A stretch of 64,000 nucleotides of DNA from a candidate division FCPU426 bacterium (GTDB lineage Bacteria; Oederibacteriota; Muellerivitia; Muellerivitales; Muellerivitaceae), in NCBI GenBank assembly GCA_963847625.1, contig CAWKAR010000034.1:32001-96000 (forward strand), given 5' to 3'. Positions 2,920 through 19,707 of the stretch are shown here, piece by piece. A program made the position numbers and the translations under genes. Below the pieces are notes generated by a model. It was given only the letters and a program-made list of their open reading frames with translations. It was not told the origin of the DNA and ran no database searches. Each line of letters begins with the position of its first letter. Positions within the stretch are counted from its first letter, which is position 1.

Positions 2920-5900
2920 TTAACGGAGAATGAGGATTTTGGAAATCCAGCGCTGGGAAGGAATAGTGACAACAGCGTAATAAAGGCCGTTAGCCGCGCG
3001 GCCGGTGAATTTATCCGGATCAAGGGTCAATTGGTATGGCCCGGTTGAAACGTAATAATCGGTGTGCTCATAGACTTTCCTGAAAGCGGTGGTAAAGACC
3101 TTCACGGTCACGTAATCGTGGGGCTTGTCGAAGGTAACCGTAAGGGTGATGGGCCCATTTCCTTTCAGGGGGTTGGGATAAAAAACCGGAGTGGAAACCG
3201 GAGGCAATGATGTAACCGGGCCCGATGTTAATGTTGGGGTTGGGGTCAAAGTGTTTGGAACAGGAGACAGGATTCCAGTCGGGGTTTCGGTCGGAGTCGG
3301 CGTCGAGGTAAAAGTGGACGTGATTGTTGGGGTATTTGTGGGTGATTGCGTCCCAGTGGCAGTATCCGTTGGAGTGAGGGTGGCTGTGGCCGTGTTAACA
3401 GACGTATTCGTCGGCGTATTTGTGGCTGTGGACGTGAATGTCCGCGTCGGGGTGTTCGTCTGGGTTAGAGTATTAGTATTTGTAGGCGTATGGGTAACCG
3501 TAGGCGTATTAGTCACCGTGGGCGTGGATGTCCGGGTCGGTGTGTTCGTCCTCGTCGAGGTGGTGTTCGTGGGCGTATTTGTAGCCGTAGGGGTTGGCGA
3601 AGCCGTAGGCGTAGCGGTGAGGGACGCCGTAGGCGTCATCGAATCCGTCGGGGTTTTCGTTGGCGTCGGCGTGGGGGTAATGGTGAGCGTAGGGGTCGGG
3701 GTTGAAGTAGGCGTCCTCGTGGGCGTGTTCGTCGGGGTGGGCGTGGGTGTGGTGGTGGACGTTGGAGTCGGGGTGTTGGTGGGAGTGTTGGTAGGTGTAT
3801 TCGATGGTGATTGCGTCCCGGTTGTCGTAAACGTCGGTGAGGATGTGATGGTTGGTGTATTCGTCAAAGTTGGGGTCGCTGACGAGGTGTGCGTTAGGGT
3901 AAACGTGGGAGTAAATGTGGTTGTATCTACTGAGGTGGTGGATGTTCGGGTGGCCGTGGGTGTTATGGTGGGTGTAAAAGTCTTAGTGGATGTGATTGTT
4001 ACGGTGGGTGTTGAAGTGATGGTCGGGGTCCGGGTGGGTGTCCCCGTGAGGGTGAGGGTGGGCGTGTTGGTGGGGCTGGAGGTCACTGTCGGGGAAAGGG
4101 TAATGGTGGGGGAATAAGTTTGGGTAGGCGTACTGGAAATGGTCGGAGACAGGGTGATTGTGGGGGTGTTAGTCGGCCCTGAGGGCGCCTGGATGACAAG
4201 CCGGTAATCGCCGTTCGGGGCGTACTCCGTGCCGGAATAAACCACGACCGTATATTGTTGTTGCGTCAAGGCCACCGTCAATTGGTCTAAGGGGGTGTTT
4301 CCCGCCGAACTGGCCACAAGGTTATCGCCCGAATCGTAAAGGTCGAATGCCACGCTGGCTTTGTTCGTCCCATCGTCGAAGCAGTCCAGTGAAATCACGT
4401 AATTTCCCGCCACAGCCGGGGTGAAGGTCCAGCTGTTGGTGAACTCGAAGTAATAATCCACGTGTCCGGTCCCCACCGCGTCCACCGTCACAGTCCCCAA
4501 CCCAGTGGGAACGGTGGTCGGAATTGACAGCGGTACCGCATTTGCCACAGGGTTCAGCGAACAGGTGGGATTGAATGGGGTGACGCAAAGCGAGAAAGTG
4601 CCCTGCTGTCCCAAGACACTCCCGTCCACGATCACGTAATAGGTGCCGGGCTGGAGAAGTCCCGTCACAAAGGAAGAGGTCGCGTCAGCGCAATATTCGG
4701 AAATCTCGTCCGCGGCAATAGTGGTGTTGGCCAAAGAAGGATTGGTTCTTAAATAAAGGGCTGTTTCGAAACTGGCACCGCAAACGCTGATGAACAGGTT
4801 GGTAGGTTGGGCGAGGGTGAACGAATAGGCGAGATCGGGCGCGCCTGCCCCGATGAGGGTCGTTCCTCCGCCCGGCAGGTTGAGAAGCTGGCTGTAACTG
4901 CTGGTGGAGGTTGCTGTATTTCCACTCACGCAGGAAACCCCGATGCTGGAAGTGATATCCGGAATCGTGGGTGATGGGGTGGGCGTGAAGGTGATGGTCA
5001 AGGTTGTAGTGGGGGTCAATTGAGGGGTAAAGGTTCCCGTGACCGGGCAGTAGCTGGCGATAAGGGGATCATTCCAGTTGCTAATATAGTCAACAGGGTT
5101 GCCAAAGCCGGAAACATTGGAGGGGAAGGTATAGCTTGTCACGGGCAAGGAATAGGCGGCGCTATTGGGCTCTCCGGTTGGTAATTGACGTGTCAGCACG
5201 AATTGGCTGACCGGGGAATAGTAAATATAAGTCAGCCAGTAATCCCCCGGCGTCAGGACAGTCTCCGGGACCGAGAACGCGTTCCAACTACCAGGGTTCA
5301 ACAAAGTGTAGCTGGAACTGGCCACCAGGTTTGCCATCTGCGTAGTGGACTGGTCGTTGGTATAGATGGCCACTGCCGCTTCCGTATAGTAGACCTGGTT
5401 TGGAATATATAAGGAGATTGTTTCCAAAATGCCGGATTGGTTCAAAGTGTAACGGCTTGCTCTCAGCCCGTTCACGTTCGACGTGGCCGTAGCGGGACTC
5501 CCGGACGTATCTATGTCTCCGAAATAGGTGGCGGCGGCCCCGCAATCCGGCGTCAGCGCCAAATTAGGGGTAGCTGTGAGGGTATTGGTCAATGTTGGGG
5601 TCCAGGTGGGCGTCGATGAAAAAGTATTAGTATTCGTTGGGGTGTTGGTCAGGATGGTTCCGGTATTCGTTGGGGTATAGGTGTCCGTGGGAGTAGGACT
5701 TACAGTGGGAGAAGGAGTAATCGTGAATGTGCTCGACGGGGTCGGGGTGTTGGTTGGAACCATGCAATAAACGGCGTACATAGCCTCATTGCCCATGCCG
5801 TAGCTGACGGAATCCGAGGATGTACTTGAGGGCAAGGTCCCGAAAGTCAGTGATATGTTTGTCCAAGCGAGATTGGTGACCCCGGAACTGGTGGTGTAAG

Positions 5901-13396: not shown

Positions 13397-13996
13397 CTAC
13401 TTGGAAATCATGAAAAGGGCCAGTTGGGCAAAGAGATTAGGGAAAAAGCGGACGCGCTTGGTCCCGTCCAAAAAGGCTCTTTTCTCGATTCGAATCCCCT
13501 TATTCCGGCAATAGTGGTGGAAATCCGAGATGGAAACCGAGTGCAGGTTGGGAGTCTCATACCACATGAAAGGAAGGGCCTTGGTAACAGGGGTTTTCCC
13601 CAGAAAAAAGATCTGAAGGCGGGATTTATAATAGGTGAAATTGGGAAACCCCACGATGACTTTCTTTCCGACCCGGAGCGCGCTATCCAACGCCCGGTCC
13701 ACATGCAGGATCTGCTGGAAGGTCTGGTCCAGGATGGCGTAATCAAAAGCGCCGTTCTGGTAGTCGGTCAGCCCGCCTTCGATGTCGTCGTGGAAGACGT
13801 TCAGGCCCTTGGCCACGCATTTGTAAATGGCCTGCTCGTCGATTTCCACGCCCTGGCCCTTCACGTTCTTTTCCTTGATGAGGTGGTAAAGCAGTTCCCC
13901 GTCCCCGCACCCCAGGTCCAGCACCGAGCTTCCCGGCTCGATCCACTCCAGGATGACCTTGTGGTCCGGCTCTAATCCGTTAGATTTCGTATTCAT
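13397..13996 (-). CDS. metW: Methionine biosynthesis protein MetW
   Basis: VLDLGCGDG, IVGFPNF, LPFMWYETPNLH; follows metX. Confidence 0.95.
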   Translation of the reverse strand: MNTKSNGLEPDHKVILEWIEPGSSVLDLGCGDGELLYHLIKEKNVKGQGVEIDEQAIYKCVAKGLNVFHDDIEGGLTDYQNGAFDYAILDQTFQQILHVDRALDSALRVGKKVIVGFPNFTYYKSRLQIFFLGKTPVTKALPFMWYETPNLHSVSISDFHHYCRNKGIRIEKRAFLDGTKRVRFFPNLFAQLALFMISK

Positions 13997-15140
13997 CAGT
14001 CACCTGGTACCCGTGGAAGACTTTCTTGAGGAAATGTTTGATCAAATGGGTTTCCTCCGCCACCTCCAGCAGGAAGGCGTCGTGGCCGTAGTTGGAGTCG
14101 ATTTCGCAATAGCTGGCTTGCACCCCGGCGAGCTTGCAGGCCTTGACGATCTCCTGGGACTGGTAGAGTGGATAAAGCCAGTCGGACTTGAACCCGATCA
14201 CCAGCACTTTCAAGTTCTTCCCCCGGAGGGATTGCTGGAAAGGCCTCTCCGCCGAGGCGTCGAAATTGTCCATGGCCTTGGTGATGTAGAGATAGGAATT
14301 GGCGTCGAACCGCTTGACGAAATTGTCGCCGCGATAGCGCAGGTAGCCTTCCACCTCGAAATCCGCCGTGAATTTTTCCGCGCCCGTACGCGCCTTTTTC
14401 TGCCGTCCGAACTTCTCGGCCATGGAGGCGTCGCTCATGTAAGTGATGTGCCCCACCATGCGGGCCACCGAAAGGCCCTTGGCTGGGGACGGACCGCCGT
14501 AATAATTCCCGCCGTTCCAATCCGGATCCGCCATGATGGCCTGTCGTCCCACCTCGTCGAAGGCGATCTGCTGGGGGGAATGCTTGATGGCGGTGGCGAT
14601 GGGGATGGCGCTTTGAAGAGCCTCCGGGTATTTCGCCATCCAGGAAAGAACCTGCATGCCGCCCATGGATCCGCCGGAAAGCGAAAGCAGCTTTCGGATG
14701 CCCAAATGCTCCAAAAGCTGTTTCTGGCAATCCACCATGTCACCGATGCTTACCAGGGGGAAATCCAGGCCGTAAGGCTTGCCGGTCTTCGGGTTGGGGC
14801 TGGAGGGCCCTGTGGAGCCTTTGCAGCCCCCGATGATGTTCGAGCAGACAACGAAGTATTGGTCGGTATCGAAGGCCTTGCCCGGGCCGATCATGTCGTC
14901 CCACCAGCCCGGCTCCTTGTCCCCTTCGTGCCACCCGGCCGCGTGGGCGTCCCCCGAAAAAGCATGCGGGACCAGGATGGCGTTGGACTTCTCCGCGTTC
15001 AGGGTCCCGTAGGTCTCGTAAACCTGCGTGACAGGCCCCAGCCACTCGCCGTTCTCAAGGGTCAGCCCCTCGAACTCGAAGGACTTGGTCTCCACCAAGC
15101 CCAACCCCGGTCCTGCTTGCTTGTCCTCCACTTCGTTCAT
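13980..15140 (-). CDS. metX: Homoserine O-acetyltransferase
   Basis: [30 protein letters not shown]. Confidence 0.96.
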
Positions 15141-16072
15141 CCTTTCGCCTCCTCAAAAAGCCAGGTGGAAAGATAGCGTTCGCCCGTGTCTGGCACAATC
15201 ACGACAATCATCTTTCCCTTGTTCTCGGGCCGCTTCGCAACTTGGATCGCCGCCCAAACAGCTGCACCGCAGGAAATACCGGCCAGGATTCCTTCTTTCA
15301 GGGCCAGCTGGCGTGCTATATCGCCGGCATTCTCCTGGGTGACCCGGATGACTTCATCGATGATTTCCCGGTTCAGGACCGCGGGGATAAAACCCGCTCC
15401 GAGGCCCTGGATTTTGTGGGGCGCCGGAGACCCGCCTGACAACACCGGCGAGGCGTCGGGTTCCACCGCGATGGCTTTGAAGGAAGGTTTGCGTTTTTTG
15501 ATGACTTCCGCCACTCCCGTGATGGTGCCGCCCGTGCCCACCCCGGAAACAAGGATGTCCACCTTGCCGTCGGTGTCCGCCCAGATTTCTTCCGCCGTGG
15601 TCTTGCGGTGGACTTCCGGATTCGCCGGATTGTTGAATTGCTGGGGAATGAAGCTGTTGGGAGTCGTCTTGGCCAGTTCCTCGGCTTTCTCGATCGCCCC
15701 TTTCATTCCCTTCGGCCCTTCGGTTAAGACCAGCTCGGCGCCTAAAATTTTCAAGAGCTGACGTCTCTCCAAACTCATGGTTTCCGGCATGGTGAGGATG
15801 AGCTTGTATCCCTTGGCGGCGGCGACGAATGCCAGGCCGATTCCCGTGTTGCCGCTGGTAGGCTCAATGATAACGGAGTCCTTCTTGAGAACGCCGCGCT
15901 TTTCGGCGTCCTCGATCATCGCCAGGCCTATGCGGTCCTTCACGCTGGACAAGGGATTGAAGGATTCCAGCTTGGCCAGCACGGTCGCCACCGTCCCCTC
16001 GGCGATCCGGTTCAGCCGCACCAAGGGGGTACGGCCGATGGTCTTGGTTATATCTTCGTATATTTTAGCCAT
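15137..16072 (-). CDS. cysK: Cysteine synthase A
   Basis: [42 protein letters not shown]. Confidence 0.97.
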
Positions 16073-16080
16073 GTTTCACC

Positions 16081-17394
<1,314 letters not shown>

Positions 17395-17517
17395 TCATAT
17401 GTAGGCCCAGGATTATTTCCTGGGGTCTTGCCGGATTTTCCAGTGGACTGGTAAATCGACATTTTGCAGGTTAATCATGGGTCCGGTTCGTCCGGTCCCG
17501 TTTTCATTTCCCAAAAA

Positions 17518-17706
17518 CTAAATACCGGCTCCCCCTTCCAATTTCCAAACGTCATCGAAGCGTTTGCGTTCCGTCACCTCGATTTGGATGATTTTTGATT
17601 CATGGACCTTAATGGTGACCACCCCATACTCCAGGGACCCGACCGCGTTCCCAATGTCCCGGAGGATGGAATCATTCAGTAATTTCTTGTTTCCTTCCCG
17701 AGTCAT
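17518..17706 (-). CDS. YezD/DUF2292 (OscA-like) small protein
   Basis: LEYGVVTIKVHESKIIQIEVTERKRF; GGGGAG RBS; first gene of the sulfur operon. Confidence 0.85.
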   Translation of the reverse strand: MTREGNKKLLNDSILRDIGNAVGSLEYGVVTIKVHESKIIQIEVTERKRFDDVWKLEGGAGI

Positions 17707-17725
17707 TGGCTTCTCCCCTTTTTCT

Positions 17726-17855
17726 AAAAAAAATCCCAAACCACTTTGGAGCGGTTTGGGATTATGAAAGTCTCAATAATCTTTCGCCGCTTTAGCACCC
17801 TGTTTTTCCATTTTTGACGGGAAACCGCAAAATGGAACCGGCCGGAGCAAGTTGG
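17726..17855 (-). ncRNA. Candidate riboswitch/attenuator, proximal copy, with terminator
   Basis: CCAACTTGCTCCGGC, hairpin, AACAGGGTGCTAAAGCGGCGAAAG..GAGAC, then AATCCCAAACCGCT/AGTGGTTTGGGATT stem and U-tract. Confidence 0.75.
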
Positions 17856-18023
17856 TTCAATAAAGGGTGTTCCAATCATTCAATTACTAGTTGGAATCAC
17901 CCTGAATTGCCAGGGGTGAGAAAAAAATATTTCAATTTTTTCCCGAAAAAGCCTTCATTTTCGGCTTTTCATCCGCCTGTTAAAGTCACGCCGTAAAACC
18001 TTCGTTTTAAAATTTTCTGCCGC

Positions 18024-18158
18024 AAAACAAAAAACCCGCGTCGCTTTTTAAGCGGCTCGGGTTTAGGAGTGTCTCGTAAACTTTTACCGCTTTAGCTCCC
18101 TGTTGATCCCGTCTCCTTGAAAGCTTCGTCAAGGGCGGGAAACGCCGGGGCAAGTTGG
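18024..18158 (-). ncRNA. Candidate riboswitch/attenuator, distal copy, with terminator
   Basis: CCAACTTGCCCCGGC, hairpin, AACAGGGAGCTAAAGCGGTAAAAG..GAGAC, then AAACCCGAGCCGCT/AGCGACGCGGGTTT stem and U-tract. Confidence 0.75.
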
Positions 18159-18188
18159 ACCTTAACGCCTCGCGTTTAACTTGATTGA

Positions 18189-18217
18189 AGTCTACCGTTG
18201 GGTCAAAGATTTGTCAA
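18189..18217 (-). promoter_or_regulatory. sigma70-type promoter of the sulfur operon
   Basis: TTGACA-17 nt-TAGACT, about 30 nt upstream of the distal leader element. Confidence 0.8.
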
Positions 18218-18275
18218 CGGCTGGACAAATTATTTATGTCGAATTTTAATTTCACTACTCAGGAATAAAAAGTAA

Positions 18276-18572
18276 CTAAGTTTCGCTTTCGGAACCGCCT
18301 TCCAGGATTTCCATGGTTTTCTCTAGGAAACCGTCAGGCAGGACGCGTTTTTTCCTGGCCCTTATCCAATCCCGGGCCCACATTGAATGGCGATTCAGGA
18401 AGTTTAAATCCGCTTGATCCAAGCGGCTCAACCAATCCTCAAAAGATTGATAATCCATGGAGCCGTCCGGCCTCAATAATGAATTTTTCGCTTTGGCGTA
18501 CTCCGAATTAGTTACCCGGATTTCCGCCGGTAGGGTTCCCGTCCGAATCAAACAACGCGAAGGTTCCATCAT
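18276..18572 (-). CDS. Possible small hypothetical protein, start uncertain
   Basis: Fills the gap after the 18508-19707 gene but overlaps its end. Confidence 0.3.
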   Translation of the reverse strand: MMEPSRCLIRTGTLPAEIRVTNSEYAKAKNSLLRPDGSMDYQSFEDWLSRLDQADLNFLNRHSMWARDWIRARKKRVLPDGFLEKTMEILEGGSESET

Positions 18573-19707
18573 TATATTCCAGCATCACCTGCAGGGGTTT
18601 GCCGTTGCTGGTGTTGGAAAATTTCACCTTCGTGACGTTCGAACCCAGGAAAGCCGGTTTGTTATCCACCCCCACGTCCGCCGTGTCATAGAGGAACGCG
18701 TCGTTCCCGACGACTTTAACCATCCGGGACCCATCCTGGCTTCGGTATTCCATGGAGGCGGTTCCGCCCGGCATTTCCGTGTTGGTGGAAGTAGAGGGAA
18801 CATAACTACCGTTGTTATAAACGCACACAACTTCCGCGCGAGAAGGATCGTTCCACCACCAATTACCCCCCCACCAGTAGCACCACCTAAAGGAAACCGG
18901 GTCGTACCACCACCAATAATTATTCCAGTGACGGGTCCAGAAATAGGAGCCGCCGACGTACCAGCCATACCAGTGGTAACCCCAGGGGTCGTAGTAATGG
19001 CAGTAGTTGAAACCGTTGTAGGAATGCCAGTAATAATTATTCCTTACGAGTTCAACGTTGTTAAAATTGGTGATCTGGGCCCTGAAGGCGATGTTCGTGT
19101 TAACCAGGCTCATATGGTTCCGAACCACCAAGTTATTCATGGCCCGAGGCTCGATGAGGGTGGCGTGCAAGGGACGGCCCTGGGGACCTGAGGTGGGATA
19201 GGCAATTTTCGAATGTGCCCGGTCAGCCTGGAGAATTTGATGTTGATCCTTAAAAGCCGGCGGAAGTTTTTTCACGCCCATACGCTGAAGGGAGGGATTG
19301 ATCCGCCCCGCCGCGGAATTTTGGCTGTGTTTGAATCCAGCCCCCGCATTCATCGAGGGATTTTTCCCTGAAGGAACGGGCCGGGACGCGTTGTTAAAAT
19401 GGTGAAGGGCCGGAGCGCTCTTCATAGCCCCCGAAGTATTCTGGTTTCCACGGGGGGAGTTATTAAAATGATGCCCTCCTGAAGCCGGAGCGGCTTGGAA
19501 ATGGGCGCCTCCAGTTTTTCGATTTTGGAAATTCCCGCGGGGTTTGGCTGGGCGGGCTTTCTTAGGGGACTTCTGGTAATGACCCTTTCCTCCTCCCGAC
19601 TTGATCCCCCCCCCGCCTTCATCGCCATTGCGTTTTAAATCTTGTCCCTGCGCGGGAAAACTGACCGCCAAGAAAAGAATCGCTAAAACCGCCCATGTCT
19701 TGTTCAT
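18508..19707 (-). CDS. Secreted protein with low-complexity N-terminus and Trp/Tyr-rich segment
   Basis: Signal peptide, AAGGTGG RBS, YHWYGWY..YWWWYD..WCYWWGGNWWW. Confidence 0.8.
   Translation of the reverse strand: MNKTWAVLAILFLAVSFPAQGQDLKRNGDEGGGGIKSGGGKGHYQKSPKKARPAKPRGNFQNRKTGGAHFQAAPASGGHHFNNSPRGNQNTSGAMKSAPALHHFNNASRPVPSGKNPSMNAGAGFKHSQNSAAGRINPSLQRMGVKKLPPAFKDQHQILQADRAHSKIAYPTSGPQGRPLHATLIEPRAMNNLVVRNHMSLVNTNIAFRAQITNFNNVELVRNNYYWHSYNGFNYCHYYDPWGYHWYGWYVGGSYFWTRHWNNYWWWYDPVSFRWCYWWGGNWWWNDPSRAEVVCVYNNGSYVPSTSTNTEMPGGTASMEYRSQDGSRMVKVVGNDAFLYDTADVGVDNKPAFLGSNVTKVKFSNTSNGKPLQVMLEYNDGTFALFDSDGNPTGGNPGN

Follow-up and report, generated by a model that had tools for sequence, protein, structure and literature searches.

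The stretch analysed here (the window) comprises 64,000 nucleotides (nt) of contig CAWKAR010000034.1 from a candidate division FCPU426 bacterium, and this work concerns a leader RNA of ~476 nt on its minus strand (window 18217-17726) that holds two homologous riboswitch-like elements in tandem. The 3' limit of the leader is the ATG of a 62-codon DUF2292 gene (17706). This gene (yezD, 17706-17518) is the first of the operon yezD-metY-cysK-metX-metW (13397..17706, minus strand), in which it is followed on the same strand by genes for the O-acetylhomoserine sulfhydrylase MetY (17373-16081), CysK (16072-15137), MetX (15140-13980) and MetW (13996-13397). The initial annotation of the window, made from the letters alone, had already named these five genes, and the Pfam and NCBIfam assignments agree with it; NCBIfam matches of the operon proteins include TIGR01326 (683.6 bits, cut-off 495), TIGR01139 (478.5 bits, cut-off 351), NF001209 (504 bits, cut-off 331) and TIGR02081 (236 bits, cut-off 190). 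The same annotation had placed a promoter at the head of the leader, and the site is there, with TTGACA at 18217-18212, a 17-nt spacer and TAGACT at 18194-18189 (minus strand; 10 of 12 consensus positions). Taken by itself it carries little weight as a promoter, since shuffles of the region yield a mean of 1.0 such site, as many as observed. TTGACA-type boxes lie at a similar distance 5' of the first aptamer in the relatives L016, L018, L019, L021, L023, L025 and L029 (L-numbers denote the loci compared and G-numbers the genomes compared, G000 being the window's own genome). Just 5' of the promoter, the open reading frames (ORFs) 18276-18572 and 18508-19707 (minus strand; 98 and 399 amino acids (aa)) were both without a Pfam match (E up to 0.001).

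Two homologous copies with differing inner hairpins had been drawn within the leader at 18158-18024 and 17855-17726. Both are present, with a mean column identity of 79%, the common blocks CCAACTTGCYCCGGC and AACAGGGWGCTAAAGCGG and inner hairpins that are unlike; the elements extend further 5' than first drawn, copy 1 starting at 18175 and copy 2 having its first strand at 17993-17980, followed by a 124-nt insertion. All coordinates of the two elements are on the minus strand. In riboswitch 1, the P1 5' strand ACGC (18172..18175) pairs with the P1 3' strand GCGU (18142..18145) and leads into GAGGCGUUAA (18162..18171), a candidate third strand in L1 and the putative counterpart of G5-A13 of the S-adenosylmethionine (SAM) riboswitch SAM-V. 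Next comes CCAACUUGCCCC (18147..18158), made up of the P2a strand CC and the P2 5' strand UUGCCCC. Beyond the P1 3' strand lies a variable P3 hairpin (18106..18141), an optional part of the family that is missing from L010 and L014, and then the A-rich linker CAACA with the P2 3' strand GGGAGC-U-AAA-GCGG (18087..18105), in which the bulged U is at 18094, the AAA at 18093-18091 and the switching tail GCGG at 18090-18087. The expression platform begins with a spacer hairpin, Px (GUUUA.GAG/CUC.UAAAC, 18061..18081), followed by the terminator CCGAGCCGC...GCGACGCGGG and its U6 (18029..18060, with U6 at 18034-18029); the terminator 5' arm holds CCGCUU, the alternative partner of AAGCGG.

Riboswitch 2 opens with the P1 5' strand CGGC (17993-17990) and the L1 strand GUGACUUUAA (17989-17980), which reads ACGGCGAGGCUUUAAC in the orthologue L022. 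The structured 124-nt insertion in the L1 turn (17856..17979) has a closing pairing, CAGG.GG/CCCCUG, that is common to L022 and L020, with two or three hairpins inside, and it is kept in the sister genome and partly in another genus. After it come CCAACUUGCUCC, then G, then the P1 3' strand GCCG at 17842-17839 (17839..17855 in all), the P3 hairpin (17806..17838), and the linker AAACA with the P2 3' strand GGGUGC-U-AAA-GCGG (17787..17805), its bulged U at 17794. The platform (17724..17781) consists of a Px hairpin at 17781-17760 that overlaps the terminator, and then the U-tract; the terminator itself (17763-17732) is a 14-bp stem with a U-tract and CCGCU in its 5' arm. Both stems and U-tracts were thus found where the initial annotation had ended its copies, as was CCGCU, complementary to AGCGG, in the 5' arms of both window terminators.

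At gathering thresholds, Rfam 15 gave zero matches over the whole window, and on 17650-18300 at E up to 10 it returned noise only (terminator, snoRNA and microRNAs). SAM-I, SAM-I/IV, SAM-II, SAM-II with long loops, SAM-V and T-box (RF00230) were each unmatched in that interval at the same threshold, in keeping with the earlier description of the tandem as riboswitch-like and unrecognised. SAM-I, SAM-I/IV and SAM-II riboswitches were not found in the window's genome, where the best score for RF00521 (SAM-II) is 16.4 bits and located elsewhere. The variant was described nowhere in a full-text literature search, whose coverage misses most subscription journals.

The motif is widespread among relatives. 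Among 99 genomes from the window's phylum, 29 contain the 15-base core pattern CAGGGNGCTAAAGCGG, with 69 occurrences in all, and its reversed form is found 0 times. A conserved strand, CGGCGAGGCUUUAA, was found 3-5 nt 5' of CCAAC, with some copies ~50 to 140 nt 5' of it. A covariance model built from 36 sequences (alignment A2) scores the window copies at 78.3 bits (E 1.3e-19) and 45.0 bits (E 2.8e-10). Two loci, L015, which is coding sequence by eye, and L011, whose 5' strand is unrecognisable, were left out of the alignments and rejected as members, being likely chance matches. At E up to 0.01 the model finds the motif in 38 of the 99 phylum genomes (weak matches only, above E 0.002, in G007, G078 and G079), mostly at sulfur operons. 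Of the 30 other genomes in the window's family, 28 carry it, and single genomes hold as many as 12 matches, most often in clusters. A scan with a pattern limited to a single gap of 9-39 nt, and hence blind to aptamers with a longer P3 such as the two in the window, covered 185,579 species genomes and returned 48 loci. Their record titles are those of metagenome-assembled genomes of Elusimicrobia/Elusimicrobiota, Candidatus Firestonebacteria, Desantisbacteria and Coatesbacteria, with a few labelled 'Proteobacteria' or 'Acidobacteria'. Five of these loci fall in genomes outside the 99, and in the phylum of one of them the motif was found in 9 of 151 sampled genomes; the motif, with the same core, is therefore present in at least two phyla. 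The shortest aptamers are 57 nt long (L010, L111). A second tandem pair that the exact pattern picked out in the window's own genome (G000:C34:108947 and 109259) was rejected as an unrelated short-repeat array. That array (G000:C34:108,900-109,400, equivalent to L009:4880-5380), which lies beyond the window, consists of short direct repeats with units such as CCGGGAACAGGGGACTTAAGCCGGGAACAAAGCCGGGATAAA, adjoins a 281-aa ORF on the opposite strand and is unrelated to the riboswitch.

Across the family the elements follow a fixed 5' to 3' order: a 4-nt P1 5' strand; GAGGC-UUU-AA; an optional insertion; CCAAC-UU-GCCCC; a single G; the P1 3' strand; an optional P3 hairpin; (A)AACA; and GGGNGC-U-AAA-GCGG. 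P1 was judged on the unfitted MAFFT seed A2, in which 99.3% of cells are paired and both sides change in three of the four pairs (pair types AU 18 / CG 14, CG 19 / GC 15 and CG 30 / UA 3). The larger alignment A3 (123 distinct rows) shows the same exchanges, CG 58 / AU 44, GC 66 / CG 47 and CG 89 / UA 20, and a P1 covariation score of 0.218 as compared to 0.095 in shuffles (0 of 500 reach 0.218) and at most 0.062 with a slid partner, and the helix covariation that the initial annotation had wanted to see is thus present in P1. The types seen include ACGC:GCGU, CGGC:GCCG, UGGC:GCCA and CGGU:ACCG, among others, to which a second locus set from the wide scan adds AGGC:GCCU, AAGC:GCUU and AUGGC:GCCAU. 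P1 is also kept across insertions of ~50 to 140 nt, as UGGC:GCCA in L017, CUGG:CCAG in L028 and ACGC:GCGU in L020.

P2 pairs UUGCCCC with GGGNGC-U-AA, leaving one U bulged and, in most copies, an unconserved bulged N. Because it is nearly invariant, the helix rests on pairing in 96-97% of cells (alignments A2 and A3), on its fit to SAM-V and on a few compensated variants, namely GCCUC:GAGGC (L040:11602, L041:12380), GUCCC:GGGAC (L053:175) and GCUCC:GGAGC (L059:111, L031:1730, L084:2637). P1 and P2 cross and therefore form an H-type pseudoknot; the initial annotation had found no P1 pseudoknot of the SAM-II kind, and the covarying 4-bp P1 that crosses the core helix overturns that statement. 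Over the 123 rows of A3, UUG is invariant (123/123), as is C-U-AAA in all 121 rows that have letters there. The last two U's of the third-strand UUU stand at the expected place in 115 of 123 rows each, the first being U in 100 and G in 12; in the rows that lack the two U's a distant 5' strand may have been left unaligned. The linker AA is kept in 120 and 119 of the 123 rows in a sequence-level test. RNAalifold, run on a MAFFT whole-element alignment, drew only the P2 stem and GCGG:CCGC and missed P1, pseudoknots being beyond what it can draw. An ordinary helix, GGCUUUAA:UAAAGC, was rejected because the variants GGCGUUAA and GGAUUUAA would break its pairing while the partner strand is invariant, and a GAGGC:GCCCC hairpin may be a competing fold.

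A hairpin with a U-run lies within ~110 nt 3' of 127 of 146 distinct aptamers (those with enough downstream sequence), and 115 of these 127 terminators carry CCGY at the top of the stem in the 5' arm; the AGCGG/CCGCU alternative pairing first noted in the two window copies is conserved. A spacer hairpin of at least 5 bp stands between tail and terminator in 117 of 131 cases; its sequence varies by copy, as in the window, where GUUUA.GAG/CUC.UAAAC contrasts with GAUUAU/AUAAUC. In many copies the terminator loop and 3' arm contain AAAGCGG, the same letters as the aptamer tail, as a strand-exchange switch would require. The minimum-energy fold of window copy 1 is the antiterminator (-18.1 kcal/mol), and the terminator (-15.7 kcal/mol) forms when the tail is held unpaired. 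No terminator was detected in the copies L074:5176-5252, L075:5051-5127, L058:1266-1342 and L043:1788-1886, all of which stand immediately 5' of a porin or transporter operon; the P1/L1 type is CGGUGGGAUUUAAU in the first three and CGGCGGGAUUUAAU in L043, and these copies may use another expression platform.

The resemblance of the UUGC / GC-U-AAA core to SAM-II and SAM-V, which was apparent from the start, extends to the entire element. In the SAM-V crystal structure (PMC6061858), P1 has 4 bp and is followed by a third strand (G5-G11), whose U8, U9 and U10 occupy the P2 major groove, by a 3-nt turn and by a P2 5' strand (A18, U19, U20, G21) that runs directly into the P1 3' strand. The RNAs crystallised are named 'metX SAM-II' and 'metY SAM-V', and operons with MetY and MetX are classic targets of these two riboswitches. 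The paper further describes the pairs U19:A49 and U20:A48, a single bulged U47, a P3 hairpin, a short P2a, an A40-A42 linker docked in the P1 minor groove and a P2 3' strand ending C46-[U47]-A48-A49-A50; U47 pairs with the SAM adenine, A50 holds the amino-acid end, and O4 of U20 and U9 face the sulfonium (PMC6061858). Every one of these elements has a counterpart here in identical order, which contradicts the earlier suggestion of a 'rearranged' relative, and the counterparts of the ligand-contacting bases are invariant or, for the third-strand U's, kept in 115 of 123 rows.

The motif thus has in common with SAM-V (RF01826) an H-type pseudoknot with a 4-bp P1, a U-rich strand just after P1, a UUG.../...C-U-AAA core with a single bulged U, a P3 hairpin in L3, an AA-containing linker before the P2 3' strand, a 2-bp P2a of the CC:GG type and metY as a target. 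Like SAM-V it can stand in tandem with another SAM riboswitch, and some family members have a SAM-V-like tail, CUAAAAAGGAG, that holds the Shine-Dalgarno sequence. It differs in a longer, G+C-rich P2 (UUGCCCC/GGGNGC, 7 bp, with a bulged N) and one spacer G before P1, in a longer L1 (GAGGC before UUU) that tolerates insertions of up to ~140 nt, and in a GCGG tail coupled to intrinsic terminators, whereas SAM-V is translational. The regulon, too, is different, taking in all of sulfur assimilation, and so is the distribution, which covers uncultured lineages labelled Elusimicrobia, Firestonebacteria and others as opposed to the marine alphaproteobacteria and Bacteroidetes of SAM-V.

Forms close to SAM-V itself occur alongside the main form. 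The variant L053:170-248, from a genome of the window's family, aligns over its full length to Rfam SAM_V (23.1 bits); it has a short L1 (AUUUAA) and the tail CUAAAAAGGAG 8 nt 5' of an AUG, and lies directly 3' of a SAM-I/IV riboswitch (52.2 bits, cut-off 41.1) with its own terminator. This mixed tandem (L053:1-260, identical to L130:1501-1760), a SAM-I/IV element of 52-63 bits joined to a SAM-V-like translational aptamer with the Shine-Dalgarno sequence in its tail, precedes a gene for a 387-aa TPR-repeat protein and a 5'-nucleotidase gene. A second translational form, L084:2637-2732, is the second aptamer of a tandem whose first (L084:2480) is terminator-coupled. Forms whose tail is the SAM-V-like AAAAAGGAG merge gradually into the main form in the same genomes and, in L084, even in the same tandem. 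In the window's family SAM-I/IV is present in 4 of 31 genomes, one copy each, and at the three SAM-I/IV loci other than that of G053 an ORF of at least 100 aa was called in one only (368 aa, unannotated); this distribution provides no contrast useful for assigning the ligand.

SAM-II (RF00521) shares the pseudoknot-triplex fold and SAM pocket with SAM-V (PMC6061858). SAM-II riboswitches are mostly transcriptional, as is the motif here, with metX among their targets. SAM-II with long loops (RF01726), a form listed in PMC2864571, indicates that the fold tolerates loop expansion. Where SAM-II has a P1 of at least 6 bp, a 4-bp P2, no P3 and a P2a of ~5 bp, as given in PMC6061858, the motif has a 4-bp P1, a 7-bp P2, usually a P3 and a 2-bp P2a. 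It is distinguished from SAM-II as well as SAM-V by its 7-bp G+C-rich P2 and spacer G, by the GAGGC block, by a C at the A18 position, by the large L1 insertions and by the GCGG tail. A leader of a sulfur or methionine gene with two such aptamers in series is reported in the abstract of PMC11508383, but here both or all three aptamers are the same new variant, usually each with its own terminator. Since the fold is common to SAM-V and SAM-II yet the consensus and distribution differ, by the same standard the motif is a variant within a known fold, not a categorically new RNA. It is a relative of SAM-II and SAM-V hitherto undetected by the Rfam 15 models.

To describe the regulon, 65 units were defined in 40 loci from relatives, with ORFs called by a simple script and categories sorted by hand from Pfam tables; NCBIfam was also used. 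Thirty units contain a single aptamer, 26 are double and nine are triple, with a median tandem spacing of 221 nt. A co-directional downstream gene could be assigned in 61 of the 65, overwhelmingly one of sulfur metabolism, the other four being cut off or unassigned. In these uncultured relatives nearly all operons for taking up and assimilating sulfur stand under the motif, frequently under two or three copies of it. The largest group (17 units) begins with a sulfate-type porin and/or sulfate-binding protein, with CysT/W/A, and the next (12 units) with a 1-Cys peroxiredoxin. ExbB-ExbD-TonB-receptor genes come first in five units, MetY-CysK-MetX(-MetW) in four (the window's operon being extra), and CysK, CysE, a family 2A encapsulin and its cysteine desulfurase cargo in three. 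CysD-CysN or APS/PAPS reductase, a DsrE-like protein and DUF3034 account for two units each, an ABC ATPase or SsuA-type binding protein for three, and ORFs without a Pfam match for six. The remaining five assigned units are led by a flavoprotein with ferredoxin, by nitroreductase-methyltransferase-RibBA-RibH, by a NUDIX protein or, in two SAM-V-like variants, by unknown genes accompanied by a 5'-nucleotidase gene. The 21 further loci from the wide scan comprise MetY with MetX or CysK (four), a sulfate transporter (four), MetH (three), an ABC ATPase with APS kinase (one), a DsrE-like protein (one), Pfam-unmatched proteins (six) and other or none (two), and all three MetH loci have short aptamers without P3. 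The motif therefore stands before genes of methionine and SAM metabolism in the window operon, in the four units and four loci led by MetY and in the three MetH loci. A comparable arrangement is the S-box (SAM-I) regulon of Firmicutes, in which one SAM-type riboswitch with terminators precedes many Met/Cys operons per genome; its aptamer is an unrelated four-way junction, however, and the regulon described here centres on sulfate uptake and reduction and is without metK.

Several of the target genes merit description in their own right. The 1-Cys peroxiredoxin (AhpC/TSA plus 1-cysPrx_C; NF009668 at 223 bits, cut-off 211) is the commonest single-gene target, with examples at L041:5522-6277, L045:6092-6760 and L052:6593-7234, and lies 3' of a double aptamer in 11 of 12 units. 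The family 2A (SrpI-like) encapsulin with its cysteine desulfurase cargo (NF041166 at 842 bits, cut-off 800) stands under the riboswitch at L045:1876-5857, L046:7403-10235 and L049:2364-8362, loci that also hold CysK, CysE and an epimerase-family gene; this placement ties the encapsulin to sulfur limitation in these lineages. In the sulfate ABC transporter operons of L041 and L044, a gene with a PTS-HPr domain (1376-1807 and 3616-3981; E 1e-20 and 6e-22) separates the permease genes from that for the sulfate-binding protein. Sulfate transporters do not usually include HPr.

From this anatomy we conclude, with high confidence, that the motif should be a ligand-sensing RNA of the SAM-II/SAM-V kind, and the leader in the window probably consists of two complete riboswitches in series, each a divergent member of that family and most likely a SAM-sensing transcriptional OFF switch. 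SAM is the most likely candidate ligand because all SAM-contacting positions are preserved, because such riboswitches typically target metY, metX and metH and because SAM-V-like forms grade into the main form. The 4-bp P1 encloses the U-rich strand GAGGC-UUU-AA and the strand CCAAC-UU-GCCCC, and GGGNGC-U-AAA-GCGG pairs back on the latter. In the mechanism that we propose by analogy with SAM-V, the UUU strand would form U.A-U triples along the P2 major groove, the bulged U would pair with the adenine of SAM, the A after the two paired A's would hold the amino-acid end and two U carbonyls of one triple would face the sulfonium. Ligand binding would lock the triplex and the CC:GG helix P2a; with the tail AAAGCGG thus retained by the aptamer, the CCGC(UU) atop the terminator 5' arm would be free for its own 3' arm and transcription would stop. 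When the ligand is absent, AAGCGG would pair with CCGCUU once that arm has been made, the antiterminator would stack on the spacer hairpin and polymerase would proceed into yezD-metY-cysK-metX-metW. This OFF logic would fit end-product control, and two serial switches, each with a terminator, may provide tighter and steeper repression.

A number of observations weigh against this interpretation. The Rfam models for SAM-II, SAM-II with long loops and SAM-V are silent on the window at E up to 10, and the best score among relatives, the 23.1 bits of L053, is under the SAM-V cut-off of 41. C replaces A at the position equivalent to A18 of SAM-V (C in 113 rows, A in 10). P2 is near-invariant and its covariation is thin, both-side changes in A3 amounting to three cells in two pairs, and 23 cells of one A3 P2 pair fit only with the bulge shifted. 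As A3 and A4 were aligned to a model that already contained P1, their counts lean towards P1, and because the sequences are related the figures are not probabilities. On the side of the platform, the 14-bp terminator of window copy 2 wins in both states. Among 128 minimum-energy folds, 35 have GCGG fully paired, 18 of these with CCGC, and 122 show the terminator. Thermodynamic folding thus rarely favours the antiterminator, and the switch must therefore be kinetic, acting during transcription. Kinetic operation is common among transcriptional riboswitches. With respect to the ligand, sulfate uptake, peroxiredoxin and TonB systems dominate the regulon, which is unusual for a SAM sensor, and metK was not found among the 65 units of relatives, the window unit and the 21 further loci. 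The 158-nt region (L133:2626-2783) upstream of metK (389 aa) in the window's genome likewise holds neither the motif nor an Rfam match (E up to 1). A regulon this broad, and one without metK, leaves room for a changed ligand.

One way of accommodating these last observations is a pocket of the same SAM-II/SAM-V-derived fold that has drifted to another sulfur-status ligand, such as S-adenosylhomocysteine, a methionine or homocysteine derivative or another adenosine-bearing sulfur compound, giving a dedicated sulfur-assimilation riboswitch in place of a SAM riboswitch. This is an unlikely, minority reading, as is the new class sensing a sulfur metabolite that the initial annotation had considered. 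Units led by sulfate, peroxiredoxin, TonB or Cys genes predominate, MetY coming first in only 4 of 65; G053 carries SAM-I/IV, the SAM-V-like translational form and the main form side by side; and the conserved GAGGC, CCAAC and GCGG blocks are not in SAM-V. It has to contend, however, with the invariant counterparts of all the SAM-touching nucleotides of SAM-V (the bulged U, the U:A.U triple positions and the A after AA), with targets such as MetH, MetY and MetX and with the gradation of AAAAAGGAG-tailed forms into the main one. A bolder version, which we regard as similarly doubtful, would make the motif a separate class derived from the SAM-II/SAM-V fold, its pocket possibly retuned to a non-SAM ligand, and the master regulator through which two or more uncultured phyla control sulfur acquisition; if true, the peroxiredoxin, the TonB systems and the encapsulated cysteine desulfurase would belong to one RNA-controlled sulfur-starvation regulon.

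The other readings fare far worse. The initial annotation had raised a protein such as YezD as the signal, and the DUF2292 gene does come first after the leader in the window, yet DUF2292 was not found among 176 downstream proteins scanned from other loci (86 + 60 + 30) and the motif precedes many operons without such a gene. With an invariant core that matches a ligand pocket known at atomic detail and recurs in at least two phyla, it is very improbable that DUF2292/YezD or another sulfur-responsive RNA-binding protein binds the leader with small molecules not directly sensed. Slightly less credible still is a conserved repeat or mobile sequence that carries terminators and has no sensing function: copy numbers as high as 12 per genome, with frequent clusters and tandems, would suit it, but a co-directional gene follows in 61 of 65 units, overwhelmingly in sulfur metabolism, the helices change in compensation while the loops are invariant, and the conserved CCGC is placed exactly for strand exchange. 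Met/Cys operons often carry T-box or SAM-I-type leaders, and such a leader (T-box, SAM-I or SAM-I/IV), diverged too far for the models, is nonetheless the most improbable explanation of all, given that the T-box and SAM-I clan models are unmatched at E up to 10, that the 57-nt aptamers of L010 and L111 are too small for either type and that the helices form an H-type pseudoknot. A divergent SAM-II/SAM-V riboswitch that probably senses SAM remains the reading that we favour.

The motif would add a third branch to the SAM-II/SAM-V pseudoknot family, with a long G+C-rich P2, large L1 insertions and terminator coupling by AAAGCGG/CCGC strand exchange as new features, and it shows that this fold can drift beyond the reach of current models. 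The covariance model can be used at once for annotating the genomes concerned. With tandems in 35 of 65 units (double or triple), the family offers a natural system for steep, 'digital' riboswitch responses. For the biology of these bacteria, a single motif connects the uptake, activation and reduction of sulfate with the synthesis of cysteine and methionine, with sulfonate and TonB-dependent import, with the 1-Cys peroxiredoxin and with the family 2A encapsulin and its cysteine desulfurase cargo; sulfur regulation in lineages that only metagenomes have revealed receives an explanation at the level of RNA.

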